Positions 9,102 through 51,978 of a DNA stretch of 64,000 nucleotides are shown here, in pieces. The translations under genes and the position numbers were made by a program. The stretch's first letter is position 1; each line of letters starts with the position of its first letter. This stretch comes from a virus. Lineage: Duplodnaviria; Caudoviricetes. The notes under the pieces were generated by a model that had not been told where the DNA came from, ran no database searches, and was given only the letters and a program-made list of their open reading frames with translations. Location: positions 32,001 to 96,000 of IMG/VR virus record IMGVR_UViG_3300050336_000035; one strand, 5' to 3'.

Positions 9102-10118
9102 GTGAAAAAATTAAATGTATCATGGACTGTAAAAAAAATAGTATATAATATTGATAAAGGAAATGTATTGTTTAACCATCCTATTCAACGTAAATCGGGA
9201 CAATGGTCAGATGAACAAAAAAGTTTATTAATACATAGTTTGTTATCAGATTATCCTGTACCGCCATTATATGCTGTACAAGACCAAAATGAAAATAGTA
9301 GTAAATATTCTGTTTTGGATGGAAAACAAAGACTTACTGTTTTACAGAATTATATTAAAGACGGATGGAAATTAATGAAAGAAATGCCGGAAGTAATAAT
9401 AAATGAAACTACATATGATATAAGTGGTTTAAAATTTTCACAACTTCCAGAAGATGCAAGAGAGGAATTGGAATCAGCAAATTTATTAATGTACATATTT
9501 GAGGATTGTTCAGATGATGAAATTGAAGAAATATTTTACCGTCTTAATAATGGAACAGCATTAACTAAAGACCAAAAAACTCGTATAAGATTAGGTGATA
9601 GGCTTGCTAGATTTATTGATGAAGTTTTAGAACTAGACTTCTTTAAGACTAAAGCATATTTTTCACCATATCAATTAAAAAGAGCTGAAGACCAAACATG
9701 TATATTACAAACATTAATGTTGCTTGTTGATTACAAATATAAAACATTTAATAATAGTGATGTTTTAGAATTTGCAGAATATTATCGAGAAAACTATAAA
9801 GAAGATGATTTGCAAGAATGTATTAAGCTATTTAGATTGCTTGATAACGCATTTACTGAAAAACATAAACAGATTAAAAAAATTAATATACCTATGTTTG
9901 TAATGGCATTAAAGGCAACATTAGATATGGATTCTTCCTTTGAATTATATTCTGGTTGGGTAAATAAATTTATTGATAGTTATAATCCAAAATGTGAATA
10001 TGCACAGTATTGTGGACAAGGAAGTACTCATAAAGATAAAATTTTAAAACGTCTTGATTTAACTTATAATGATTTAATAGATTATATTTCTGAAAAGGAG
10101 GTACACAATGAGTTTTAA
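9102..10118 (+). CDS. DUF262 (GmrS-like ParB/Srx) domain protein
   Basis: PIQR...W, VLDGKQRLT, IFYRLNNG motifs. Confidence 0.8.
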   Translation: MKKLNVSWTVKKIVYNIDKGNVLFNHPIQRKSGQWSDEQKSLLIHSLLSDYPVPPLYAVQDQNENSSKYSVLDGKQRLTVLQNYIKDGWKLMKEMPEVIINETTYDISGLKFSQLPEDAREELESANLLMYIFEDCSDDEIEEIFYRLNNGTALTKDQKTRIRLGDRLARFIDEVLELDFFKTKAYFSPYQLKRAEDQTCILQTLMLLVDYKYKTFNNSDVLEFAEYYRENYKEDDLQECIKLFRLLDNAFTEKHKQIKKINIPMFVMALKATLDMDSSFELYSGWVNKFIDSYNPKCEYAQYCGQGSTHKDKILKRLDLTYNDLIDYISEKEVHNEF

Positions 10119-11250
10119 TATAGATATTAAAAAAATAAAACCTCATCCTAGAAATAAAGAAATTTATGGTGAGGAAAATATTAATGAACTTGCAGAACAA
10201 ATTATAAAAAGCAACTGGATAAATCCTATTCTTATTAATGATGATAATATAATTATTAGTGGACATAGACGTTATCTAGCATGTTTAATAATTGGTTTAT
10301 TAGAAATTCCTTGTGAACGTATTACATTTAAAGATAAAAACGATGAACTTGAAAGGCTTCTTCTTGAGAATCAATATAGAGAAAAAACAATCTATCAAAA
10401 AATGAAAGAATCAGAAGTTTGGCAAGAGATTGAACCAGAATTAGCTAAAAAAAGGAGATTAGCGAATTTAAAACAAAATTCCGATAAGGACAATTGTCCT
10501 ATTCGGCAAGATGGTCAAGTTCGCGATATTATTGCTGAGAAAGTAGGATTGGGTTCTGGACGTACATATGAAAGAGCAATGCCTGCTGTAAAGAAAATAG
10601 ATGAATTAAAATCACAAGGAAAAGAAAAAGATGCTGAATTTCTTACAGTTGTTTTAAATGGAAGTGTAAGAGGGGCAAAGGATTTGTCTGAAATAGAATC
10701 ATTTGATGAAATATCTAATGAGATTAAAGAAAAAGTAATTAATAAGGAAATTCCTGTGATAAATGCAGTAAAACAAATACGAAATGACTTAGGAATAATA
10801 ACTGATAATAAAAAACAAACAATAAAAAAGAATAGTGAAAAAATCAAGAAGACGAAAATTTGTAATAAATGTGGGGAAGAAAAATCAATATTAGAATTTT
10901 ATGAAGGTAAAAATTATTGTAGAGATTGTCAAAATTCTAATAGAACAAGACAGTTTAAAGATGTTCATGGTAATATTATTCCTACAGACAAAGAAAAATT
11001 AAAAGGAATAGATTTAGATGCTATAGAAGCTGATATAAAAGATACAAATAAAAGCGTTAAAAATAATGATTATGACACTATTACTATGGAAATACAAGCA
11101 AATATAAGTATTTTTATGAACTCAATAAGAAGAATTGTAGAAAGTGAAGATTCTTATGAGGAAATGGATATCTGTAATAAAAATAAGTTATTAGATGCTA
11201 TTAATATGGTGGAAGACACTATTAATATAATAAAAAATAAATTAATTTAA
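10108..11250 (+). CDS. ParB/Spo0J N-terminal domain protein with HTH and Zn-finger region
   Basis: PHPRNKEIYG, IISGHRRYLA, LLENQYRE; CNKC...CRDC. Confidence 0.8.
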   Translation: MSFNIDIKKIKPHPRNKEIYGEENINELAEQIIKSNWINPILINDDNIIISGHRRYLACLIIGLLEIPCERITFKDKNDELERLLLENQYREKTIYQKMKESEVWQEIEPELAKKRRLANLKQNSDKDNCPIRQDGQVRDIIAEKVGLGSGRTYERAMPAVKKIDELKSQGKEKDAEFLTVVLNGSVRGAKDLSEIESFDEISNEIKEKVINKEIPVINAVKQIRNDLGIITDNKKQTIKKNSEKIKKTKICNKCGEEKSILEFYEGKNYCRDCQNSNRTRQFKDVHGNIIPTDKEKLKGIDLDAIEADIKDTNKSVKNNDYDTITMEIQANISIFMNSIRRIVESEDSYEEMDICNKNKLLDAINMVEDTINIIKNKLI

Positions 11251-11265
11251 AAGGAGATTACAATT

Positions 11266-12084
11266 ATGACAATGAGTAGTAATGTAGTAAAATTTAATGA
11301 AATGAATTTAGGAACAACAGTACAGGTTCAACCGATTTCAACAAAGAATTTAACTTCTGGTGCAAAGTATCAAAGAACAATAGACCATAAAAAGGTTGAG
11401 AAGATAGTGAGTACTTATGACCCTCATAAGGTTGGAGTTATTAAAGTAAGTTATAGAGACGATAATTACTGGGTATATGACGGTCAGCACAGATTAATGG
11501 CACTCAAGACAATAAATCATGGTAAAGATTGTATGGTACTATGTGAAGTACATTATGGGCTTACATATGAGGACGAGGCAAGATTATTTGCTGAACAATA
11601 TGATGGTGCTACAAAAGTAGATATAGTCTATCAAATGGGAGCATTACTAGAAGCAAAAGATGAGGACGTTGTTAAAATAAAAGATATTGTTGAATCTACT
11701 GGATTGCAAATACCGTTTACCAAGTCTAAAGGAAATGACAAAATAGTTGCTGTTAGTAAAATAAGAACTATTTATAAAGATTTACAAGAAGACGGATTAA
11801 GAAGAATATTAACTCTTATTAAACAAACATGGAATGGAACATCTTCATCACTTGATAAGTACGTATTAGGTGGTATGCATCAATTCTTAAAGACTTATAA
11901 GACAGAAATAAGTGACATTACATTTATAAAGAATCTAAGTAAGATTGAACCACTTATGATTAAAAGAGTGGGAGATAGTGATATGAGTGCAAAGGGAGAT
12001 TTAAAATATGCAAAAGTAATTCTTGATTATTATAATAAGGGGTTAACATCAAAAAGTAGACTAGAATATAACTTTAAAGGCTAA
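11266..12084 (+). CDS. ParB/Srx-superfamily (DGQHR, DUF6551-like) protein
   Basis: YQR...VYDGQHRLMA...EDEARLF. Confidence 0.75.
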   Translation: MTMSSNVVKFNEMNLGTTVQVQPISTKNLTSGAKYQRTIDHKKVEKIVSTYDPHKVGVIKVSYRDDNYWVYDGQHRLMALKTINHGKDCMVLCEVHYGLTYEDEARLFAEQYDGATKVDIVYQMGALLEAKDEDVVKIKDIVESTGLQIPFTKSKGNDKIVAVSKIRTIYKDLQEDGLRRILTLIKQTWNGTSSSLDKYVLGGMHQFLKTYKTEISDITFIKNLSKIEPLMIKRVGDSDMSAKGDLKYAKVILDYYNKGLTSKSRLEYNFKG

Positions 12085-12225
12085 TACATATTTTATTTAA
12101 AAGAGAACTTGCATATATCAAGTTCTCTTTTTGTTATAAATATAATTTTTAATGTTGACTTTATACATTTAATTTGTTATACTATATTTAAAGAAATTAA
12201 TATTACATATTGAAAGGGTGATTTT

Positions 12226-12579
12226 ATGACAGGTGGGATTGTAGCAATACGAAATATAGAAAACAACAAAGTACATATTGGTAGAACATGTAGCTTAATA
12301 AATACAAGAAACAATTTTGAAAGACATGTAAGAGGATTAAAATATCCTCCTAATCAAGATATTAGAGAAGATTGGAATAAATATGGTAGTAAGAAATTTA
12401 TACTTGAGATTGTAGAAGTTATAGAAGATTATACTTCTTCAAAAGGTGAAAGCAGAAAGAAATATTGGATAAGTAAGATTAATCCTGATATGCTATATAA
12501 CATTAAAGGTGTAATATATAGTGAATCAGAAGTTAATCTTCCACAATTCAATTTTGATGAAAGCATATATGCTTATTAA
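12226..12579 (+). CDS. GIY-YIG nuclease-like protein
   Basis: GIVAIRNIENNKVHIG...DWNKYG...F.LEIVE...YN (degenerate GIY-YIG). Confidence 0.7.
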   Translation: MTGGIVAIRNIENNKVHIGRTCSLINTRNNFERHVRGLKYPPNQDIREDWNKYGSKKFILEIVEVIEDYTSSKGESRKKYWISKINPDMLYNIKGVIYSESEVNLPQFNFDESIYAY

Positions 12580-12849
12580 TATAATTATATGATAGAACGA
12601 GTATTTTAATTAGTATTTTGTTATTAAAATAATTTATAATAACTATTGCATATTAGATTATTATTTGGTATAATATAGTAAAGAGATGAAAGGTGGTACA
12701 TAAATATGAAACTTTGCAAATTGTGTAGTAAAGATATAAGTGAAAGACATCATTCAGCAAAATATTGTGTAGAATGTGCTATAAAGAAGAATTTAGAAGA
12801 TACATATAATAGAAATTGTAAAGACTGTAAAACCAGATATTGTAAATAG

Positions 12850-12948
12850 AATTATGTTATGAAAGAACAGATTTATTCAAATATTTCTATTTGATTTGTG
12901 GTATCTCTAATTATTTAGGCTTAACCATAAGCATATAAATCAATGCTT
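12850..12948 (-). ncRNA. omegaRNA-like guide RNA L1 (scaffold ~12870-12948, putative guide reading leftward)
   Basis: Inverted homolog of the RNA downstream of tnpB; three stems; own consensus promoter. Confidence 0.75.
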
Positions 12949-12954
12949 AATGCT

Positions 12955-12984
12955 ATTATAAATTCTTAATATAATGATTGTCAA
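12955..12984 (-). promoter_or_regulatory. sigmaA promoter for ncRNA L1
   Basis: Minus strand TTGACA-N18-TATAAT. Confidence 0.8.
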
Positions 12985-13068
12985 CTATTTGCTGAAATTT
13001 TTACCATCTTTAATAAAAGTACATAATACAGTATAATAGAAGCAATTAATTAGAGAGGTGGTAAATTA

Positions 13069-13269
13069 ATGGCAGTTAAAAATAGATTAAAAGAAATTAT
13101 AGATGAGCGAGGTATAAAGCAAGTCTGGCTTGCTGAACAAGTAGGTATATCATATAAAACACTATCTAATATAATAGGTGGAAGATATAACACTAGTTTA
13201 GATGTAGCATTAAAAATAGCAGATGTTTTAAACGTAAAGGTCGATGATATTTTTTATTTAGAAAAATAA
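13069..13269 (+). CDS. XRE/Cro HTH regulator
   Basis: KNRLKEIIDERGIKQVWLAEQVGIS...SLDVALKIADVL. Confidence 0.9.
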   Translation: MAVKNRLKEIIDERGIKQVWLAEQVGISYKTLSNIIGGRYNTSLDVALKIADVLNVKVDDIFYLEK

Positions 13270-13304
13270 TGCTTAAATTTAGATATTATTTTTCATAAAA
13301 ACTC

Positions 13305-13352
13305 TTGACATGCAAGATAATTTCCTTTATACTTAAATTACAGGTTGCAACC
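13305..13352 (+). promoter_or_regulatory. sigmaA promoter followed by GGTTGCAACC palindrome
   Basis: TTGACA-N17-TATACT; palindrome at 13343-13352, conserved in module 2. Confidence 0.75.
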
Positions 13353-13381
13353 AAGTAGTTTAGTGTAAAGGAGAATTACAT

Positions 13382-13789
13382 ATGTATGATGAGTTACTAG
13401 AACAATTGAAAGTATTAGATAAATTTAATAAAGGCAAAGTATCAATCACCTTAAACTTTGGTAATTCCTGTATAACCTACACTTATATGAATTTCAGTTG
13501 GGATGAAGATGCAGGATACTTAGTCATGGGAGATAATGACACAATTCACGAAGATGCTACTAGTATAGATTTTGATGATATTTTAGAAGTTGATGAGATG
13601 AATGATGATTTAGTTGAATTGACACTGGAGAATGGAAAAGTAGTTATTATATTAGATACCGAATATTCACTATGCTTTAAATGCGGAGAAAAAAGACCTG
13701 TGTTCTATATGAGGGCTTATGGTGAAAATTCAGAAGAATATGATATAAGAGTATGTCAGGATTGTTTTAATAAGATGATTGAATGTTAA
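13382..13789 (+). CDS. Acidic beta-rich protein with C-terminal Zn ribbon
   Basis: CFKC...CQDC; positional counterpart of 47981-48448. Confidence 0.75.
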   Translation: MYDELLEQLKVLDKFNKGKVSITLNFGNSCITYTYMNFSWDEDAGYLVMGDNDTIHEDATSIDFDDILEVDEMNDDLVELTLENGKVVIILDTEYSLCFKCGEKRPVFYMRAYGENSEEYDIRVCQDCFNKMIEC

Positions 13790-13814
13790 ATATGAACGGA
13801 AAGGAGGAGTAATT

Positions 13815-15215
13815 ATGACTGTTGAAATGAGAACTATTAAATTTTATTCTAATAATAAGACAACTAAAGAAGATTTTGATAAAGGTATTAAATTTTTAAC
13901 TGAATGCCAGGAAGTTCAAAATAAGTTATTGGAATATTATTGGAACAATTTCAGTTTAGTAATTGATTCTAAAAGTTGGATTGATTTCTATAACACAAGA
14001 GTTATGATTACTGCTCCTTCTATTAAGTTTCAACACTATCAACAAATACTTCATATGGTTTATGGTACACTTAAATCTTTACAGGAGAATATTATTCAGA
14101 AAATTCACTTTAAATTTGAAGATAAATTACAACAACGTATTTATAACTATTGTAGTAAGTTTATTTTTGATTGGAATAGGCTTGAAATATATGTTAATAA
14201 ACAAGTTAAAGAGTATAAAAAGAAAGATAAGAAATACTATGAGTTTTTATTAGAAGTTAAAAACGTAATAGATAATGAACAATCTTTTTTGATGTTACAG
14301 CAGGATATAGAAAATAAGTTTTCGGAAATTAAAAATAAAATAAATTTACCACAAAAGAAAACTAAACAGATAATTGCAACTACTCTTCATACAATAGACA
14401 TTGAAAAATATGATAATTATTGGATATTTATAATTGATACTAATCATTTTATAAGTAAAAAGAAAATGGATAAATTCAAAATAGTAATTGATATATCAGA
14501 TTATCATAGAAATGTACTTGACAAATATTGTTTAAAGAATACTTTTACTATAAAACTAAATAATTATGGCAGGATTGAAATTACAGGAGCGTACGAAAAA
14601 GAAATAGATTATCCAGAATCTAACCCTAAATATATTATTGGAATTGATATAGGCTTAAAGAATTTAATTGTATCGTCTGATGGTGAATTTATTGAACAAA
14701 ATAAAACTATTGTAGAGAAAACTCAAAAGCTAATTAAAAATCAAGCTAATAGACAAAGCTTAGAAGCTCATATGAAAAAGAAACTTGATGATGAAAATTT
14801 TACTTTACCTGATAAAAACTATATGAAGAAACAAAATAAGCTTAGTAGATTCGTACAATGTGATAATCGTTACAAGGTTAAACAATTTCTAAAAGGTAGG
14901 GAAGACACTCATATCATTATGGAAGATTTACATTTAAATGATGCTAAGACATATAGCAAAGAAGTAAATTATATGCTGAGAAGAATGAGGATACAAGGCA
15001 TTAAGAATGATTTATTGAAGTACACAAAAGAGATGGGGATTAAAACAACACAAATAAATCCTAGATATACAAGTATTGATTGTCCAATTTGCGGAAATAG
15101 GGATAAATTAAATAGGCAGACACAGGAAACATTCAAATGCACTAAATGTGGTCATACAGATAATGCAGACCATAATGCTAGTGTGAATATTGAAAATAGG
15201 TATTTAAAGGTATAA
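13815..15215 (+). CDS. tnpB: TnpB/Cas12f-like RNA-guided nuclease, RuvC triad intact
   Basis: IGIDIG, IIMEDL, CPIC...CTKC, NADHNASVNI; start at 13815 chosen from the SD and the paralog. Confidence 0.9.
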   Translation: MTVEMRTIKFYSNNKTTKEDFDKGIKFLTECQEVQNKLLEYYWNNFSLVIDSKSWIDFYNTRVMITAPSIKFQHYQQILHMVYGTLKSLQENIIQKIHFKFEDKLQQRIYNYCSKFIFDWNRLEIYVNKQVKEYKKKDKKYYEFLLEVKNVIDNEQSFLMLQQDIENKFSEIKNKINLPQKKTKQIIATTLHTIDIEKYDNYWIFIIDTNHFISKKKMDKFKIVIDISDYHRNVLDKYCLKNTFTIKLNNYGRIEITGAYEKEIDYPESNPKYIIGIDIGLKNLIVSSDGEFIEQNKTIVEKTQKLIKNQANRQSLEAHMKKKLDDENFTLPDKNYMKKQNKLSRFVQCDNRYKVKQFLKGREDTHIIMEDLHLNDAKTYSKEVNYMLRRMRIQGIKNDLLKYTKEMGIKTTQINPRYTSIDCPICGNRDKLNRQTQETFKCTKCGHTDNADHNASVNIENRYLKV

Positions 15216-15226
15216 AATATATAAAA

Positions 15227-15322
15227 AGGCTTTGATTTAATGCCTGTGGTTAAGCGTACTTTAGTACAGATACCATTAATTGCTTTAAAAAGTGAATGAA
15301 TCAGTAGTTTTATTTCGTTAAA
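15227..15322 (+). ncRNA. omegaRNA-like guide RNA R1 (scaffold ~15227-15302)
   Basis: AGGC..GCCT, GGTTAAGCGTACTTTAGTACAGATACC and terminal hairpin, conserved with 50105-50184. Confidence 0.75.
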
Positions 15323-15856
15323 ATAGTTAAAAGCAACCCATTGTGGTTGCAAAACACAATAGCAACCAAATATTATTGCGGAGGTGAATAATAATGAATA
15401 TCAATGAAAATAACTTGAAAAACTATGTTGGATTTTCTGATGAGCAATGGAAAGAAGCGAGACCTTTAATAATAGGTATAGCTAACAAATCAAATAAAAA
15501 TTATAGTGAAATATTAAAGATATTATTAGAAATTGCAAAAGCAATTAAAGGCGAAGAGATGTAAAAAGTTATTGATATTAATATAATAGTATGTTATAAT
15601 TGTATTATAAAATAAATTGAAAGAAGGTATTACATATGAAGGACGTTAAAAGTAGTTCATTAAAACCATTAGAAATTTGCGAATATGCTAGTACTTGTGA
15701 ACATACATGTAATGGTAAGAATGAACAGAGGGATTGTACCTTTAGTTGTGGATTAAGACGAGGTTTATTAATGTGTGACGGTTATGATATTAAATTTGGA
15801 TTACAATAGAAGAAAGGATTTATTCACTAATAAAATAAATTGGGAGGTACATAATA

Positions 15857-16420
15857 ATGTGTAAATTTAATAAGGCTTGGATAGGAATTTGTAATAAAGA
15901 AAATATAATTGGTGAAGAATATTGTGAAGAACATTTACAAATCAAATGTTCGGTTTGCGGAGAACAAGCTACACATGATTGCCATGAAACTAATCAGTTT
16001 GTATGTGGAACTCCTTTATGTGATAAACTTGATTGTAAGCTTATTCATTTTTATCAAAGTCATGGTTATGCTTTTGGAGAACTTGTTGAGTTAGAAAAAG
16101 AATTAAATATAACTCCATTTAAAATAATAGTTTCAAAAATTAATTATGGTATCGGAAAATTTGCAGAATGGTGCAATGAAAATTATAGAGACAGGTTAGA
16201 AGTTTTACTAATGACATATGATAAAAACAATAATGTAAAATTTTATAATGCTCAACATAGATATTATATTAAATTCAAAGAAGAAATTATCAAACTTTTT
16301 GAATATTCTTGGTATGAAGAAATAATAAAAGAAAAAGGTATTTATTATTCTGAAAACCCAATTTATATTCAGAATAAATATTTAACAGATATTATTGATA
16401 CTTTTGAAAAAGTATTATAA
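15857..16420 (+). CDS. Cys-rich hypothetical protein
   Basis: 187 aa with N-terminal Cys clusters. Confidence 0.75.
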   Translation: MCKFNKAWIGICNKENIIGEEYCEEHLQIKCSVCGEQATHDCHETNQFVCGTPLCDKLDCKLIHFYQSHGYAFGELVELEKELNITPFKIIVSKINYGIGKFAEWCNENYRDRLEVLLMTYDKNNNVKFYNAQHRYYIKFKEEIIKLFEYSWYEEIIKEKGIYYSENPIYIQNKYLTDIIDTFEKVL

Positions 16421-16465
16421 TACACAATGAAAGATAGATTTGGTAACGAAAGGAGAATAAAATAA

Positions 16466-16903
16466 ATGTATACAGGATTTGAGCAGGATTTAATTCTTGC
16501 CTGTAAATGTCATTATGGTTCAAAAGGAATAGAAAAGGTTATTAGAGATTATATAGGATATGGTGAAAATCAAGAAATAAAACTAGATTCTAAATATCAT
16601 TTTATATCCGAGTTATTTTTGAAATTGTGTAATAATGGTCATCTAAAGTATATATATTTATTAGATAGATTATCACCTAGAAATATATATGACCAAAAAC
16701 ATATGGAATTCCCTTTAAGTAAAGTCAATTATAATTTATATGATTTACCTAGAATAGTATGTGACCATATGATTGGAGAAATTCAAGGAGTAAGAGTTAA
16801 GGATGGCAATAAAGTATTAATAGAATTGCATGAAAATAATAAAAAATACATTGAGGAAGAAAAGGATGAGAAAAATGAAATTTCTAAAGAAGTTATTTTG
16901 TAA
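16466..16903 (+). CDS. Hypothetical protein
   Basis: 145-aa ORF with SD. Confidence 0.75.
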   Translation: MYTGFEQDLILACKCHYGSKGIEKVIRDYIGYGENQEIKLDSKYHFISELFLKLCNNGHLKYIYLLDRLSPRNIYDQKHMEFPLSKVNYNLYDLPRIVCDHMIGEIQGVRVKDGNKVLIELHENNKKYIEEEKDEKNEISKEVIL

Positions 16904-17439
16904 ACATCAATATAAATACATGGGATTTTTAAATTATGAGGAAGGTACATTTCATACATTTTATTGTAAGAATTGTAACTATTTAAAATTAAGGAAAACA
17001 TTATAGAAACGATATTTTATCATGTTTGGAGGATAAGGAATGTTAGCTACTGAAGGAATTAAAATTGAAGGAAATAAAGTTATTATTAAGGACGAATTAA
17101 CTAAAACAGCTTATAGAGTTGATTTTGATTACTTGGTGGATATTATTCGTACTAAGGTTGCTAAAAATAAATTAGAGCCAACTATAGAAAAACAGAAAGG
17201 AATTCAATGGTATGATTAATATGGATTTCGTAAAAAATGCAAATAAAGCAATTTGCATTGATAATACTGATACTCAATATTTAACATTAAATAAAAAGTA
17301 TTATGTACAAGAAACTTGTAATGGTAATTGCTTAACATATAATGATGAAGGAGTATTACATAATTATTGCATTGATAGATTTAAATTATTAGCTTAAAAT
17401 GGTTATTTGGTATTAATATAATTATAGGAGGAAAATAAC

Positions 17440-18123
17440 ATGTTACATGAAATTTATAATTCTGAAGAGGCTATCAAAAACTACATAAAAGATTTAACAA
17501 CATTACATGAAGTTTGCGACTTCAGACATGATAGAGGTTATCATAAAAATGAAAGAATGAAGGATGTGAAAGTTCTTGATGGTTTTATTTGGCTTGATAC
17601 ATGTGGGAATGCAATGGTGAAAATTAGTAAAGATGCTTATTCTCCAATTTGTTTGCCAAATAAGGATGATATTTGTCCTGTATGCGGAAAAGGATGGAGC
17701 ATATATACCATAGAAGATTATATAACAACATATGACTATAGTAATGAAAAAAGACAGTTTTATCATAAACAATGTAACTTCATAAATAATCTCAATATAG
17801 AGCAAAAACAATTTACAGAAATATTTGATATGGTATATCCAAAGGATTATTATTTAAAAATCACACCAAATGAATATTGTCAATGCAGTAAGTGTGCTCC
17901 ATGGTTTATTTTTACTGTACCTCATGGAGATATAAAAATAGGATGGAGAAAAAGAGTTATAAATATTGAATGGTTAAACAATTATAAACAGTTCTCAGAA
18001 AATTTTGAATCTGAAGATGTTACAAGGGGTTTTGGGAAATGGGGAGATGATAGATATATTCATGCTTGGGGAATAGAAAAGGCTATTGAATATATTAGTA
18101 AAGCAAAGGAATCTATTATATAA
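17440..18123 (+). CDS. Hypothetical phage protein
   Basis: 227 aa; PNEYC...PWF...GDIKIGWRKRVINIEW. Confidence 0.8.
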   Translation: MLHEIYNSEEAIKNYIKDLTTLHEVCDFRHDRGYHKNERMKDVKVLDGFIWLDTCGNAMVKISKDAYSPICLPNKDDICPVCGKGWSIYTIEDYITTYDYSNEKRQFYHKQCNFINNLNIEQKQFTEIFDMVYPKDYYLKITPNEYCQCSKCAPWFIFTVPHGDIKIGWRKRVINIEWLNNYKQFSENFESEDVTRGFGKWGDDRYIHAWGIEKAIEYISKAKESII

Positions 18124-32451: not shown

Positions 32452-32913
32452 TGGTATAAAAATCCCTCCTTTTGTTAAAAAAATTATTATATATATTATT
32501 CGTAGAAAGCTAAATTTTATGGGTATATAATTCTTTGTATTATTAATTAATTGTTATTAAAATAATTTTTTATTTATATTGACATATTGTTATAATGGTG
32601 ATAAGATATATATGTAAGATAAAGGTAAATAAAAAAAGTGAATAGAGTTAACCTTTGGTAATGTTTTTGAAAGGAATTTAAAATGAGAGATGAATTATAT
32701 GCTTTTAGATGTAAAGAATGCGATTTCATCTATCTTGAACCGTATAATATTTCAGATAGATTTAGTAAATATCCTAGTTGTCCAGATTGCGGTTGTAAAG
32801 ATGTAGAAATATATGAAGGCGAGTTGTCAGAAGATTTACAAGAATTTGCTAGTCAATATGCTGATGAATTAGAAAATGAAGAAGATGAGTAGTTTGAATT
32901 AAAATTGTGTTTC

Positions 32914-33045
32914 ATTAAGAAAGGGAAATTAATCAATGCAGATTTAAATGGAGCGTATCAGATAATAAAGAAAGTAATACCAAATGCTTTTGCTGATGGT
33001 ATAGAGGGTGCAGGTTTACATCCGATTAGAGTTAATTTAATCTAA
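32914..33045 (+). pseudogene. tnpB: C-terminal remnant of a TnpB with the 3' part of its omegaRNA
   Basis: GKLINADLNGAYQIIKKVIPNAFADGIEGAGLHPIRVNLI*; starts at dyad 32898 and is followed by hairpin plus dyad 33069. Confidence 0.85.
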
Positions 33046-33109
33046 TAAATCACTTTGTAAAAAAGTGAATGAATCAGCGATTTGATGATATATAAGAAAG
33101 GAGAAGCTT

Positions 33110-47387: not shown

Positions 47388-47487
47388 AATTTATGAATGA
47401 AAACGCTGATTCATTCACTTTTTAAAAGTGATTTATGGTATCTGAACTAATGTCCGCTTAACCAACAAGCATATTGAATCAATGCTT
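47388..47487 (-). ncRNA. omegaRNA-like guide RNA L2 (scaffold ~47408-47487)
   Basis: Homologous to L1/R1/R2 with compensatory changes. Confidence 0.75.
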
Positions 47488-47494
47488 AATTAGA

Positions 47495-47523
47495 ATTATA
47501 ATAGTAATTGTAATAATTGTCAA
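47495..47523 (-). promoter_or_regulatory. sigmaA promoter for ncRNA L2
   Basis: Minus strand TTGACA-N17-TATAAT. Confidence 0.8.
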
Positions 47524-47662
47524 TACTTTTAGTATTTTATCGTTATTAATATAAATTATGTTGACATTGTAGTTCAATTAATGTATACTAATAATTGTAA
47601 GATAACATCTCTTCCCCGTTACTACATAATATTATATAATAGCTTATGGGAGAGTGATATAT

Positions 47663-47866
47663 ATGGTTAAGAATAGGTTAAAAGAAATATTAGATGACAG
47701 AGGAATTAAACAAAAATGGTTAGCTGAAAAAGCAAATGTTAAAGAAAACACATTATCAGGTATCATAAATAATAAAACCGTAACAAGTGTAGATATAGCA
47801 ATAAGAATTGCAAAAGTTTTAGAAATGCCTGTTGAAGATATATTTCAAGACCAAGATTCATTTTAA
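47663..47866 (+). CDS. XRE/Cro HTH regulator (paralog of 13069)
   Basis: KNRLKEILDDRGIKQKWLAEK; start could be GTG 47654. Confidence 0.9.
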   Translation: MVKNRLKEILDDRGIKQKWLAEKANVKENTLSGIINNKTVTSVDIAIRIAKVLEMPVEDIFQDQDSF

Positions 47867-47980
47867 CAGAATTATTATTCATTATTCTGAATTTTTATAT
47901 TGACATATTGAATTTATTCCCTTATAATAAAAATGTAAGTTAAAGGTTGCAACCACACTTACCAAATTTATTATAAGGGA

Positions 47981-48448
47981 GTGTCTAATATGAAATTAGA
48001 AAAATTGAATCAGTTGGGTAAAGAATGTAGTTTAAGGAAATTATCTCAATTCTTAGGTATGAGGGTTGAAGTAAGTATTAATACTCATACTCATAATAAC
48101 AATTTAATGTGTACATATTTCTATGAAAGTTTCGATTTTGATGCAGGTGAATTTATACTATGTCTATTTGATAAGAAAGATGAAACATTAAATACTAGGA
48201 TTAATAATGAATTAATTTTAGAAGTAAAAAATCTAACTGAAGATTTATATGATGATGTAATTCATATCTATACAAATGATTTTATCTTATCCATTACAAC
48301 ATTAGAACAGAAACTTATCCTTCCTAAATGCAATCATTGTGGCAAAGAAATTGAGCATAATGAATACTGGTTATCTGGAGCTTATGGTGATTTGAGATTA
48401 TGCGAAGATTGCTCTTATCCATTATATCCAATCAGTGAAGAAAATTAA
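47981..48448 (+). CDS. Beta-rich protein with C-terminal Zn ribbon
   Basis: CNHC...CEDC; preceded by TTGACA-N17-TATAAT and GGTTGCAACC (47945). Confidence 0.75.
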   Translation: MSNMKLEKLNQLGKECSLRKLSQFLGMRVEVSINTHTHNNNLMCTYFYESFDFDAGEFILCLFDKKDETLNTRINNELILEVKNLTEDLYDDVIHIYTNDFILSITTLEQKLILPKCNHCGKEIEHNEYWLSGAYGDLRLCEDCSYPLYPISEEN

Positions 48449-48475
48449 AAATATGAGTAGAAAGGAGGAGTAATC

Positions 48476-49879
48476 ATGGCTATGGAAATGAGAGCAATCA
48501 AATTTTATTCCAATAATAAAACTACAACTGAAGATTTTAATCGAGGCATTAACTTTTTAACCGAATGCCAAGAAGTTGAAAATAAGCTATTAGAATATTA
48601 CTGGACTAACTTTAATGAAGTTATTAGTGTTAGAACTTGGATTGATTTCTATAGTAAAAGAATTATGATTACTTCTCCTTCTACTAAATTTCAGCATTAT
48701 ATGCAAATACTTCACATGGTTTATATGCAATTAAAAAGTTTAGAAGAAAAAACTAAGCAAAAGGTTCACTTTAAATTTGAAGATAAAATGCAACAACGCA
48801 TTTACAATTACTGTAGTAAGTTTGTTTTTGACTGGGATAGACTTGAAAAGTACATTAATAAACAAGTTAAAGAATATAAAAAGAAAGATAAGAAATATTA
48901 TGATTTCTTAATGGAAGTAAAAAATATAATAGACAATGACTTATACTTCTTAACTTTACAACAAGATATTGAAAATAAGTTTTGGGAGTTAAAAAACAAA
49001 ATAAATCTACCTAGAAAGAAGTCTAAACAAATTTGGGCTACTACGTTTCATACCGTAGATATTGAGAAGTATGAGGGTTATTGGATTTTTGTTATTGATA
49101 CTAATAAGTTTATTACTAAACGTAAAATGGAAAATTTCAGAATAGTAGTAGATATATCAGATTATCATAATAGTATATTAGATAATTATAATTTAAATAA
49201 CACTTTTACTATTAAATTTAATAATTATGATAGATTTGAAATTATTGGTGTATATGAAAAAGAAATTATTTATCCTGAACCTAAACCTACTAAAACAATT
49301 GGTATTGATATTGGCTTAAAGAATTTAATTGTATCTTCCGATGGTGATTATATTGAGCAGAATAAAACAATATTAAAGAAAGCTCAAAAATTAATTAAGA
49401 ATCAAGCAAATAGACAAAGTTTAGAAGCACATATGAAAAAGAAATTAGATAACGAAAATTATACTCTACCTGATAAAAATTATATGAAGAAGCAGAACAA
49501 ACTAAGTAGATTTGTTCAATGTGATAATCGTTATAAAGTTAAACAATTTCTCAAAGGTAAAGAAGATACCCATATCATTATGGAAGACTTACAATTAAAT
49601 GATGCTAAGACTTATAGTAAAGAAGTAAATTATATGCTTAGAAGAATGAAGATTCAAGGGGTTAAAAATGATATTTTAAAGTATACAAAAGAAATGGGTA
49701 TAAAGACAACACAAGTAAATCCAAGATATACAAGTATTGATTGCCCTATCTGTGGAAATAGAGACAAACAAAATAGACAAACACAAGAATTATTTAAATG
49801 TACTAAATGTAGTCATACAGATAATGCAGACCATAATGCTAGTGTTAATATTGAAAATAGATATTTGAAAGCACAATGA
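48476..49879 (+). CDS. tnpB: TnpB/Cas12f-like RNA-guided nuclease, RuvC triad intact
   Basis: IGIDIG, IIMEDL, CPIC...CTKC, NADHNASVNI; close paralog of 13815-15215. Confidence 0.9.
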   Translation: MAMEMRAIKFYSNNKTTTEDFNRGINFLTECQEVENKLLEYYWTNFNEVISVRTWIDFYSKRIMITSPSTKFQHYMQILHMVYMQLKSLEEKTKQKVHFKFEDKMQQRIYNYCSKFVFDWDRLEKYINKQVKEYKKKDKKYYDFLMEVKNIIDNDLYFLTLQQDIENKFWELKNKINLPRKKSKQIWATTFHTVDIEKYEGYWIFVIDTNKFITKRKMENFRIVVDISDYHNSILDNYNLNNTFTIKFNNYDRFEIIGVYEKEIIYPEPKPTKTIGIDIGLKNLIVSSDGDYIEQNKTILKKAQKLIKNQANRQSLEAHMKKKLDNENYTLPDKNYMKKQNKLSRFVQCDNRYKVKQFLKGKEDTHIIMEDLQLNDAKTYSKEVNYMLRRMKIQGVKNDILKYTKEMGIKTTQVNPRYTSIDCPICGNRDKQNRQTQELFKCTKCSHTDNADHNASVNIENRYLKAQ

Positions 49880-49888
49880 GGATATGTT

Positions 49889-50086
49889 ATGAATGATGGA
49901 TATTATGAAACAATTGGATTTTTAGGACAAAAATTTACTTGGTATTTTTCAAATGATTCATGTGTTGTAGTTAATGAAGCCACTGAAGAAGAATGCGAGT
50001 TTCCTATTTCAAAAATTAGTATTACAAATGATACAATAAAAATTAAAGGAAGCCATTCTTTTACAATTTTACCTTTGGATAACTAA
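49889..50086 (+). CDS. Small hypothetical protein inside module 2
   Basis: 65-aa ORF with SD between tnpB and ncRNA R2. Confidence 0.65.
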   Translation: MNDGYYETIGFLGQKFTWYFSNDSCVVVNEATEEECEFPISKISITNDTIKIKGSHSFTILPLDN

Positions 50087-50104
50087 GTGAATATTTCAAT
50101 AAAA

Positions 50105-50204
50105 AGGCATTTATTTATATGCCTGTAGGTTAAGCGTACTTTAGTACAGACACCACAAATCACTTTATAATAAGTGAATAAATAACGTGTTTTATTTACT
50201 TTTA
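50105..50204 (+). ncRNA. omegaRNA-like guide RNA R2 (scaffold ~50105-50184)
   Basis: AGGCAT/ATGCCT, GTAC/GTAC and CACTT/AAGTG stems. Confidence 0.75.
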
Positions 50205-50232
50205 GTTATTAATATAATATGGAGGTTAATTT

Positions 50233-50994
50233 TTGGCACATAGAAAATATAAAGATACTCATAGAATAAATGAACAAGGTTTAGAAGAAAAACAGTGTAG
50301 AGATTGTAATGAATGGCTTTTAATGAATAATACATACTTTAACACAGTAAATGGGAAGAAAGATAAATTAAATGACAGATGTAAAATATGCCAAGACATT
50401 TATCAAAGAATCAATTATTTAAAAAATGCCGACAAACAAAGAGAAAAAGCTAAAAAGAGAAGACTTGAAAAACTACCTGAAATTACTGAATATTTTTTGC
50501 AGTATTATAAAAACAATAGAGAGTCTATGAAAGCAAAAAATAAACAGTATAAAAAGGAACATTCTGAATATTATAAAGAAAATAGCAGAAAATTTAGACA
50601 GTCTGAACGTGGTCGTGAAAGATGTAAAATTTATAACAGGAAACATAGAATCAAAAAACACCAAATAACTAATAAGGAATGGGAAAATTGTAAAAAGTAT
50701 TTTGATTACAAATGTTGTTATTGTGGGCTTCCATTATCAGAACATTATTATACCAGAAAAGGTATTACAAAACTAGGAGATTTTCACAAGGAACATATTA
50801 TAGATGATGGGAAGAATGATTTAAGTAATTGTGTTCCTAGCTGTCAATCTTGTAATAGTAGTAAAAGAGAGTACTCTTTACATACATGGTATAACCCTCA
50901 AAATCCTTTTTATGATAAAGATAGATATCATAAATTGTATTTATGGATTAGATATGATTATAAAAAATACATAAAAAAGAAAAAGATAAAATAG
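50233..50994 (+). CDS. HNH endonuclease
   Basis: CCYCG...HKEHII...NCVPSCQSCNSSK. Confidence 0.9.
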   Translation: MAHRKYKDTHRINEQGLEEKQCRDCNEWLLMNNTYFNTVNGKKDKLNDRCKICQDIYQRINYLKNADKQREKAKKRRLEKLPEITEYFLQYYKNNRESMKAKNKQYKKEHSEYYKENSRKFRQSERGRERCKIYNRKHRIKKHQITNKEWENCKKYFDYKCCYCGLPLSEHYYTRKGITKLGDFHKEHIIDDGKNDLSNCVPSCQSCNSSKREYSLHTWYNPQNPFYDKDRYHKLYLWIRYDYKKYIKKKKIK

Positions 50995-51944: not shown

Positions 51945-51978
51945 TTAGTAATATAATTATAGAAAGGATTTATTACAT

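Follow-up and report, generated by a model that had tools for sequence, protein, structure and literature searches.

TnpB uses an omegaRNA derived from the 3′ end of its element, with the flanking DNA as guide, and promotes retention of the element by homing (PMC8612924; bioRxiv 10.1101/2023.03.14.532601). Precedents for the arrangement reported here include the inverted terminal repeats around DDE-associated TnpBs and the duplicated omegaRNA scaffolds or arrays of Sigma-TnpB, which carry more than one guide (PMC10691335). Here we analyse a 64,000-nt window of viral DNA (bases 32001-96000 of IMG/VR record IMGVR_UViG_3300050336_000035) that carries two TnpB modules, each with an omegaRNA-like gene facing out of either end. 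In the literature searched, we found no TnpB cassette described as having omegaRNA genes that face outward at both ends. We lean slightly towards reading the module as a transposase-free, two-guide TnpB element that spreads by homing and cassette replacement. Positions below are those of the window unless another sequence is named.

TnpB modules, their nuclease and their RNA genes

The window belongs to a complete viral record of 167,493 bp (hereafter G000), with direct terminal repeats and a GC content of 26.7%. Since the sole genome-resident relative of its TnpB-like nuclease lies in a Bacillota metagenome-assembled genome, the phage host is probably a low-GC Firmicute. BLAST and covariance-model searches of the whole genome located three modules. 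Two are inside the window, namely module 1 (12859-15313, from the start of the left boundary dyad to the end of the right one) and module 2 (47397-50195), and the third is outside it (G000 106008-108568, corresponding to L001 2009-4569). Each module consists, in order, of an RNA gene that points left and has a consensus sigma-70 promoter, the gene of a small regulator, an open reading frame (ORF) of about 140 residues for a Zn-ribbon protein, an intact gene for a TnpB/Cas12f-like nuclease, and a rightward RNA gene. Module 2 has an additional 65-aa ORF ahead of its right RNA, and module 3 encodes an Arc/CopG-like ribbon-helix-helix (RHH) regulator in place of the XRE helix-turn-helix (HTH) protein. 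This architecture is kept across six independent contigs. Among GenBank phages, the locus DNA has no match and the TnpB has no tblastn match at E <= 1e-20.

The complete 167-kb genome encodes no Y1 (TnpA, PF01797), serine (PF00239) or DDE_3 transposase. It does encode four tyrosine recombinases, none of them in or beside any module. There is no CRISPR repeat array in positions 10000-18000, and none was seen in the module sequence.

The RuvC residues D278, E370 and D452 of module 1 TnpB and its CxxC..CxxC zinc finger are intact, and they are invariant in 22 clade members. PF07282 matches the nucleases of modules 1 and 2 at 59.6 and 55.6 bits, both above the cutoff, and PF01385 matches module 2 at 31.3 bits, above the cutoff, and module 1 at 27.1 bits, just below it. 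The NCBIfam guided_TnpB profile is matched over its full length at 86.7 bits, against a cutoff of 100. About 60 proteins at 45-82% identity form a sharply bounded group, beyond which the similarity drops to E 1e-15 with ordinary TnpBs; judged by these comparisons, the group is a divergent TnpB clade. The solved structure nearest to the clade profile is a Cas12f chain (9nzq, E 6e-24), with ISDra2 TnpB reaching only E 2e-5. A metagenome scan with the TnpB alignment returned only a duplicate of L002, another module-bearing phage, plus L240.

The RNA scaffold is about 85 nt long and folds into three hairpins and a pseudoknot, in which the stem-1 loop pairs with the last 7 nt of the scaffold. In an alignment of 15 RNA copies from nine elements, in which 26 pairs of stems 1-3 and the pseudoknot were scored, 93.3% of the cells are paired and 18 of the 26 pairs have changed on both sides, including four of the seven pseudoknot pairs. 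None of 500 shuffles was as good, and slid partners were only 32-44% paired. Single-sequence folding energies are modestly better than those of shuffles (z-scores of -0.7 to -3.2), so the case for RNA structure rests on covariation. A covariance model (R1) built without the pseudoknot scored the seed copies at 85-100 bits (E about 1e-12). The search with this model, which an earlier sequence-only reading of the window had suggested as a check, recovered non-seed copies beside clade TnpBs in L007 (62 bits), L082 (51), L158 (69), L123 (84) and L240 (54), and gave no further match in about 1.3 Mb of other phage DNA. The RNA has no match in Rfam, either at gathering thresholds or at E <= 10, and in IMG/VR a DNA-pattern search for its core picked up chance matches for the most part, with one real locus in 80.

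In every clade locus whose 3′ side is in the sequence, the RNA starts a few bases past the TnpB stop codon, or, in module 2, after one short ORF. Because it lies directly 3′ of every clade TnpB examined, we take this RNA of about 85 nt to be the omegaRNA scaffold of the clade. By analogy with known TnpBs, the flanking DNA past each scaffold would then be the guide. For module 1, the predicted guides start leftward from about 12870 and rightward from about 15302. In all modules, each putative 16-nt guide is unique in the genome and confined to its own flank. About 30 nt past the right scaffold of module 1, there is a GC-rich hairpin (15333-15350) with a terminator score on the minus strand only, which could stop antisense read-through into the module.

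The left, inverted RNA copy is a feature of a subclade and was found in modules 1-3, L002 (L239 is the same phage, 99.99% identical), L004, L005, L123 and L240. Among the left copies by themselves, pairing is 94% and 12 pairs show changes in both partners. On the outward strand they contain seven G-U cells versus one C-A cell, which fixes this strand as the functional one. In addition, all six left copies examined have a TTGACA-like/TATAAT promoter that ends 1-3 nt ahead of the start of the RNA model. The promoter of module 1 agrees with the sigma-70 consensus at 12 of 12 positions and is the best match in the region, where promoter-like sites as a whole are not in excess (25, compared with 21.9 in shuffles). 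On the evidence of pairing and promoters, the left copy is maintained as an RNA gene. The left and right copies are separate sequence types, each common across modules, and the three module TnpBs share 78-80% identity, no more than they share with copies in other phages. These two observations indicate that the two-RNA layout is old and conserved rather than a recent duplication. The same order of left RNA, HTH, Zn-ribbon and TnpB genes was met again in L123, which was found independently via a Zn-ribbon profile. L240 (3187-5436) has another composition: a minus-strand scaffold copy comes after an ordinary TnpB gene of 397 aa and before a clade TnpB, with no regulator or Zn-ribbon gene. The left RNA is thus not strictly tied to the accessory genes.

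Altogether, these results confirm what the sequence-only reading observed and bear out part of its interpretation. All the parts that it had listed for modules 1 and 2 were found where it placed them, the D/E/D triad and zinc-finger residues of its intact TnpB are present, and its transposase-free module holds for the whole genome. The covarying stems 1-3 and the pairing of loop 1 with the 3′ end were borne out, the consensus promoters proposed for both left RNAs have near-consensus counterparts in all six left copies examined, and the proposed origin of the guides in the flanks fits scaffolds that face outward and end inside the dyads. Its count of two modules is right for the window and one short for the genome.

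Boundary dyads and an alternative allele in a related phage

The dyad is an 18-bp palindrome of two 6-bp half-sites around a 6-bp core (N6). It occurs 51 times in G000, compared with 8.0 ± 3.5 in dinucleotide shuffles, and nearly all copies lie 2-11 nt past a stop codon and 20-40 nt ahead of the next start, as at 2290, 7841, 18131, 35274, 43852 and 52724 in the plus-strand accessory region of the window. Dyads are also enriched in the loci of relatives and in a TnpB-free phage of 180 kb (L044, with 8 versus 0.24). Because they stand genome-wide at gene boundaries and are enriched even in a phage that lacks TnpB, the dyads serve as general punctuation between genes throughout this phage group and are not parts of the element. 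The sequence-only reading had proposed that the module is mobilised through the dyads; these counts correct it in that the dyads are not module-specific.

The modules are fitted into this punctuation. At about 14 of 18 scaffold ends, an outer half-site (WTTYAT) follows after exactly six variable bases, and the last bases of the scaffold, which are the 3′ strand of the pseudoknot, are the inner half-site. As the scaffold itself supplies the inner half-site, the modules are always flush in a boundary site. The scaffolds of both RNAs thus end in the inner half of a dyad, as the sequence-only reading had it, and the co-location of scaffold and dyad that it proposed to check was found at those 14 or so ends. 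Module 3, with an ATAAAT-type outer half at either end, breaks its further rule that outer halves read ATRAAA. The N6 cores differ between the two ends of every module. The G-T and A-C mismatches in the dyads show no strand bias, which points to a site read at the DNA level and suggests that the dyad is bound by a dimeric protein.

A decayed cassette lies between two boundary sites at 32896-33085. It holds a C-terminal relic of about 45 aa from a different TnpB-like gene and only the last third of a scaffold (stem 3, the pseudoknot strand, N6 and the half-site; 25 bits with the covariance model). The scaffold part, which comes after the relic, is nearly identical to the left end of module 2.

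The only comparable allele concerns module 2. Phage G001, a relative whose record is that of L002, has both flanks of the module-2 locus, together with the same two dyads and the same N6 cores. The left flank is matched over about 105 nt of intergenic leader, and the right flank by an HNH gene whose protein is 78% identical. Between these dyads, G001 carries four ORFs (142, 100, 155 and 144 aa), none of which has a homologue anywhere in G000, and the homology between the two genomes breaks within the inner half-sites. The sequence-only reading had expected an empty allele rejoined at one N6 core; the allele of G001 instead fits a course in which one cassette has taken the place of another, with a breakpoint at each of the two boundary sites. 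These two dyads of G001 carry matches to the putative guides of module 2, at 16 of 16 positions (19 of 20 when extended) on the left and at 14 of 16 on the right. G001 has no allele of the module-1 or module-3 loci. In IMG/VR, the protein right of module 1 has no relatives, and the protein right of module 3 has 68, none with a shared left flank and none with the RNA. A second indel between G000 and G001, near 51970, has no clear bounding dyads and lends no support to a general dyad-to-dyad exchange.

Several neighbouring sequences were recorded at the module flanks. A TnpB-only element in another phage (L006 6480-6535, compared with 50178-50230) shares the N6 core and the first 12-13 nt of flank with the right end of module 2, and the downstream genes differ, encoding an N6/N4 methyltransferase in L006 and an HNH protein here. 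A weak GIY-YIG-like ORF lies left of module 1 (12226-12579) and an HNH endonuclease ORF right of module 2 (50233-50994), so genes resembling protein homing endonucleases neighbour the RNA-guided nuclease. HNH-like genes are also found right of the L002 module and right of the alternative cassette of G001.

Proposed homing and cassette replacement, and rival explanations

In the homing and cassette-replacement reading that we favour, the right scaffold and the inverted left scaffold would each provide the nuclease with a guide that reads into the adjoining flank. The protospacers would be the boundary sites on either side of the module. When two phages infect one cell, or when the phage meets a prophage, a related genome may have another cassette, or none, between the same flanks. 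The nuclease would cut this genome at one boundary or at both, and recombinational repair with the module-bearing genome as template would then swap the resident cassette for the module. The outcome would be homing, with exclusion of competitors as a side effect. Nuclease production would probably be timed by the Zn-ribbon protein together with the small regulator, whether XRE HTH or Arc-like RHH. In this reading we infer that the left RNA is expressed, that both RNAs are loaded and that DNA is cut, and we likewise suppose a target-adjacent motif (TAM), a self/non-self rule and gene conversion. More tentatively, the modules might be two-guide gene drives that act on whole cassettes. The universal boundary palindrome would be a TAM-bearing target frame, the nuclease would cut both boundaries of a rival's cassette and replace that cassette, and the module would be protected by a pseudoknot strand that forms its own half-site.

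Several observations weigh against the favoured reading. No truly empty allele was found, and the single alternative allele concerns module 2 only. The putative right guide of module 2 matches G001 at only 14 of 16 positions, with 13 contiguous nt. The simplest self/non-self rule also fails. At the TAM position, G001 has ATAAAT on the left and ATGAAA on the right, and the junctions of module 2 itself have ATGAAT and ATAAAT. The left site of G001 and the right end of module 2 are thus both ATAAAT, and no rule that turns on the last base could cut the former and spare the latter. The G001 allele likewise conflicts with the rule proposed in the sequence-only reading, under which TRAAA would be cut and ATRAAT spared. 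The T at this half-site position pairs in the pseudoknot and is therefore structurally constrained. Five clade members examined (four of them with search filters off) have the right RNA only, so the left copy is not needed for persistence. Moreover, the three copies in G000 are as far apart as copies in other phages, which means that any spread was old or slow, and the reading offers no route for the first arrival of a module at a new boundary.

Such a route is what the main rival supplies, namely movement by a system that acts on the dyads. The modules would be non-autonomous cassettes moved by the boundary-site machinery of the phage: the 90-bp inverted ends would be terminal repeats, the dyads would be recognised in trans by a recombinase that reshuffles every cassette between dyads, and only the right RNA would serve TnpB, the left copy being a by-product of the symmetry of the ends. 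This explanation, which we consider unlikely, draws on the dyads at nearly every gene boundary (51 versus 8) and their enrichment in the TnpB-free L044, on the non-TnpB cassette between the same dyads in G001, and on the single-RNA element L008, which is also bracketed by two dyads. The four tyrosine recombinases of the genome, the symmetric ends reported for DDE-associated TnpBs (PMC10691335) and the unbiased dyad mismatches, suggestive of a protein site in DNA, point the same way. However, plain terminal repeats would not be expected to keep RNA-type covariation, outward G-U pairs and a promoter of their own at stem 1, as the left copies do. The N6 cores differ between the dyads of a module, which the overlap of a classical tyrosine recombinase would forbid, and no recombinase lies in or beside any module. 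The two explanations are not exclusive, and dyad-directed movement could carry a homing module to new sites.

Domestication for a use other than homing appears quite improbable. The fixed guides would attack prophages or competitors at conserved boundaries, or direct regulated cutting or binding at the flanks of the module itself, under control by a lysogeny-type pair of regulators. The age of the module lineages (78-80% identity between copies) is consistent with this, as is the HTH and Zn-ribbon pair, which precedes a Bro-N/ANT gene elsewhere in the genome without TnpB and looks like a general switch; phage-encoded relatives of TnpB with non-homing roles are also known (TldR; bioRxiv 10.1101/2023.11.30.569447). 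Nevertheless, the RuvC residues are intact, unlike those of TldR, the guides at three loci are whatever flanks the module, a signature of mobile elements with no chosen target, and presence at a given locus varies between related phages. That the inverted repeats and dyads are AT-rich coincidences or annotation artefacts can be set aside as refuted. Short AT-rich motifs are common in a genome of 26.7% GC and promoter-like sites are no more frequent than in shuffles, but chance would not yield covariance-model scores of 85-100 bits (E about 1e-12), covariation beyond all 500 shuffles, the constant 6-nt spacing of the WTTYAT half-site at about 14 of 18 ends, or one architecture in six independent contigs.

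Module features and comparison with known systems

The features of modules 1 and 2 are listed in Table 1. The regulator of module 1 matches only repressor and antitoxin models in NCBIfam, all below threshold. The Zn-ribbon proteins are of two types, about 30% identical to each other, and belong to a small family with 43 cluster representatives among 1.84 billion proteins. They have no Pfam, PHROG or NCBIfam match. The AlphaFold model has a pLDDT of 71 and no significant fold match in the PDB, the Atlas neighbours are hypothetical or YmzB-like proteins, and a metagenome scan with the Zn-ribbon alignment found nothing. At about 138240-140030 of G000 (L241 1240-3031, minus strand), a Bro-N/ANT antirepressor gene lies downstream of genes for an XRE HTH protein of 90 aa and a Zn-ribbon homologue of 168 aa, and no TnpB or RNA scaffold is found near this locus at about 138-140 kb. 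Because the same pair occurs there without TnpB, we infer that it is a separable regulatory switch and no cofactor of the nuclease. The conserved 5′ leader of type-B modules (47600-47665; L001 2215-2275; L002 3120-3180) is kept although the first gene varies between modules. A pyrimidine stretch in it is complementary to the ribosome-binding site of that gene, and the two would pair in a hairpin that could hide the site.

Table 1. Features of modules 1 and 2, with window positions, strand and basis of assignment
Feature	Position	Strand	Basis and remarks
Left boundary dyad, module 1	12859-12876	.	Motif scan; 6-6-6 palindrome; inner half belongs to left RNA
Left omegaRNA-like gene, module 1	12864-12953	-	Covariance model R1, 93.9 bits; covariation; fold z-score -3.0; three hairpins and pseudoknot
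Sigma-70 promoter motif of left RNA, module 1	12955-12984	-	12/12 to consensus; 18-nt spacer
Promoter-like site of HTH gene, module 1	13010-13037	+	10/12; divergent from left-RNA promoter
XRE/Cro-type HTH regulator, 66 aa, module 1	13069-13269	+	Pfam HTH_26 and HTH_3, E 4e-12
Near-consensus promoter motif for Zn-ribbon and TnpB genes, module 1	13305-13333	+	11/12
Zn-ribbon ORF, 135 aa, module 1	13382-13789	+	No Pfam, PHROG or NCBIfam match
TnpB/Cas12f-like nuclease, 466 aa, module 1	13815-15215	+	Pfam PF07282 and PF01385; clade alignment
Promoter-like site upstream of right RNA, within end of tnpB, module 1	15190-15218	+	10/12; weak or absent in sister modules
Right omegaRNA gene, module 1	15222-15308	+	Covariance model R1, 89.7 bits; directly 3′ of tnpB
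Right boundary dyad, module 1	15296-15313	.	Motif scan
Left boundary dyad, module 2	47397-47414	.	Motif scan; dyad with identical N6 also in related phage G001
Left omegaRNA-like gene, module 2	47402-47492	-	Covariance model, 93 bits; promoter motif 47495-47523
XRE HTH regulator, module 2	47654-47866	+	Pfam
Zn-ribbon ORF type B, module 2	47981-48448	+	About 30% identical to module 1 protein
TnpB, 467 aa, module 2	48476-49879	+	80% identical to module 1 TnpB
65-aa ORF between tnpB and right RNA, module 2	49889-50086		
Right omegaRNA gene, module 2	50100-50190	+	Covariance model, 96.4 bits
Right boundary dyad, module 2	50178-50195	.	Motif scan; N6 and outer half recur in G001 and L006

If the left RNA is functional, a transposase-free TnpB element with one guide per flank would be a natural counterpart, in phage populations, of engineered dual-guide gene drives. 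It would open to direct test the persistence of solo TnpB genes that lack TnpA, as well as the exchange of accessory-gene cassettes between large phages. In addition, a compact scaffold of about 85 nt outside the ORF, with well-defined covariation, for a nuclease of roughly 466 aa is of practical interest for genome editing, and the finding ties RNA-guided nucleases to a genome-wide boundary palindrome.

Like solo-TnpB (IS1341-type) and IS200/IS605 TnpB-omegaRNA systems such as ISDra2 (PMC8612924; bioRxiv 10.1101/2023.03.14.532601), the phage modules combine a nuclease with RuvC and zinc-finger motifs and a pseudoknotted RNA at the 3′ end. They also share with the IS200/IS605 TnpB systems the adjacent flank as expected guide and the logic of homing. 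Unlike IS200/IS605 or IS607 elements, they have neither a Y1 TnpA nor a serine transposase, in the element or in the genome. In contrast to IS200/IS605, they have a scaffold of only about 85 nt that does not overlap the ORF at all, their ends are inverted copies, about 90 nt long, of one RNA gene rather than asymmetric left and right ends, and the end opposite the first scaffold carries another, outward-facing one with its own promoter. The clade is distant from ISDra2 in sequence (E 2e-5 to the clade profile; guided_TnpB 86.7 bits versus the cutoff of 100).

The best match among solved structures is Cas12f (type V-F; 9nzq, PMC13186708), which is of similar size and has a pseudoknotted guide RNA. 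The phage modules differ from it in lacking a CRISPR array and adaptation genes, and in having a single fused scaffold with a fixed guide that would derive from the flank. They differ from DDE-associated TnpBs and Sigma-TnpB in having no DDE transposase, in an inverted scaffold with its own promoter at the far end instead of a tandem array, and in a catalytically intact nuclease. The intact RuvC triad likewise separates them from TldR-type RNA-guided transcription factors. Compared with integron-like and other site-specific cassette systems, the module contains no recombinase and its N6 cores differ at the two ends. In proposed mode of working, though not in family membership, the modules resemble the free-standing homing endonuclease genes of phages, such as T4 Seg and Mob, for which intronless homing and marker exclusion have been reviewed (PMC13565253), in that a nuclease gene lies between conserved genes, the allele of a competitor is expected to be cut in co-infected cells, and repair would copy the gene into it. 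Unlike Seg and Mob, the target of the phage module would be read by RNA rather than by protein, and two programmable specificities would bracket the cassette.

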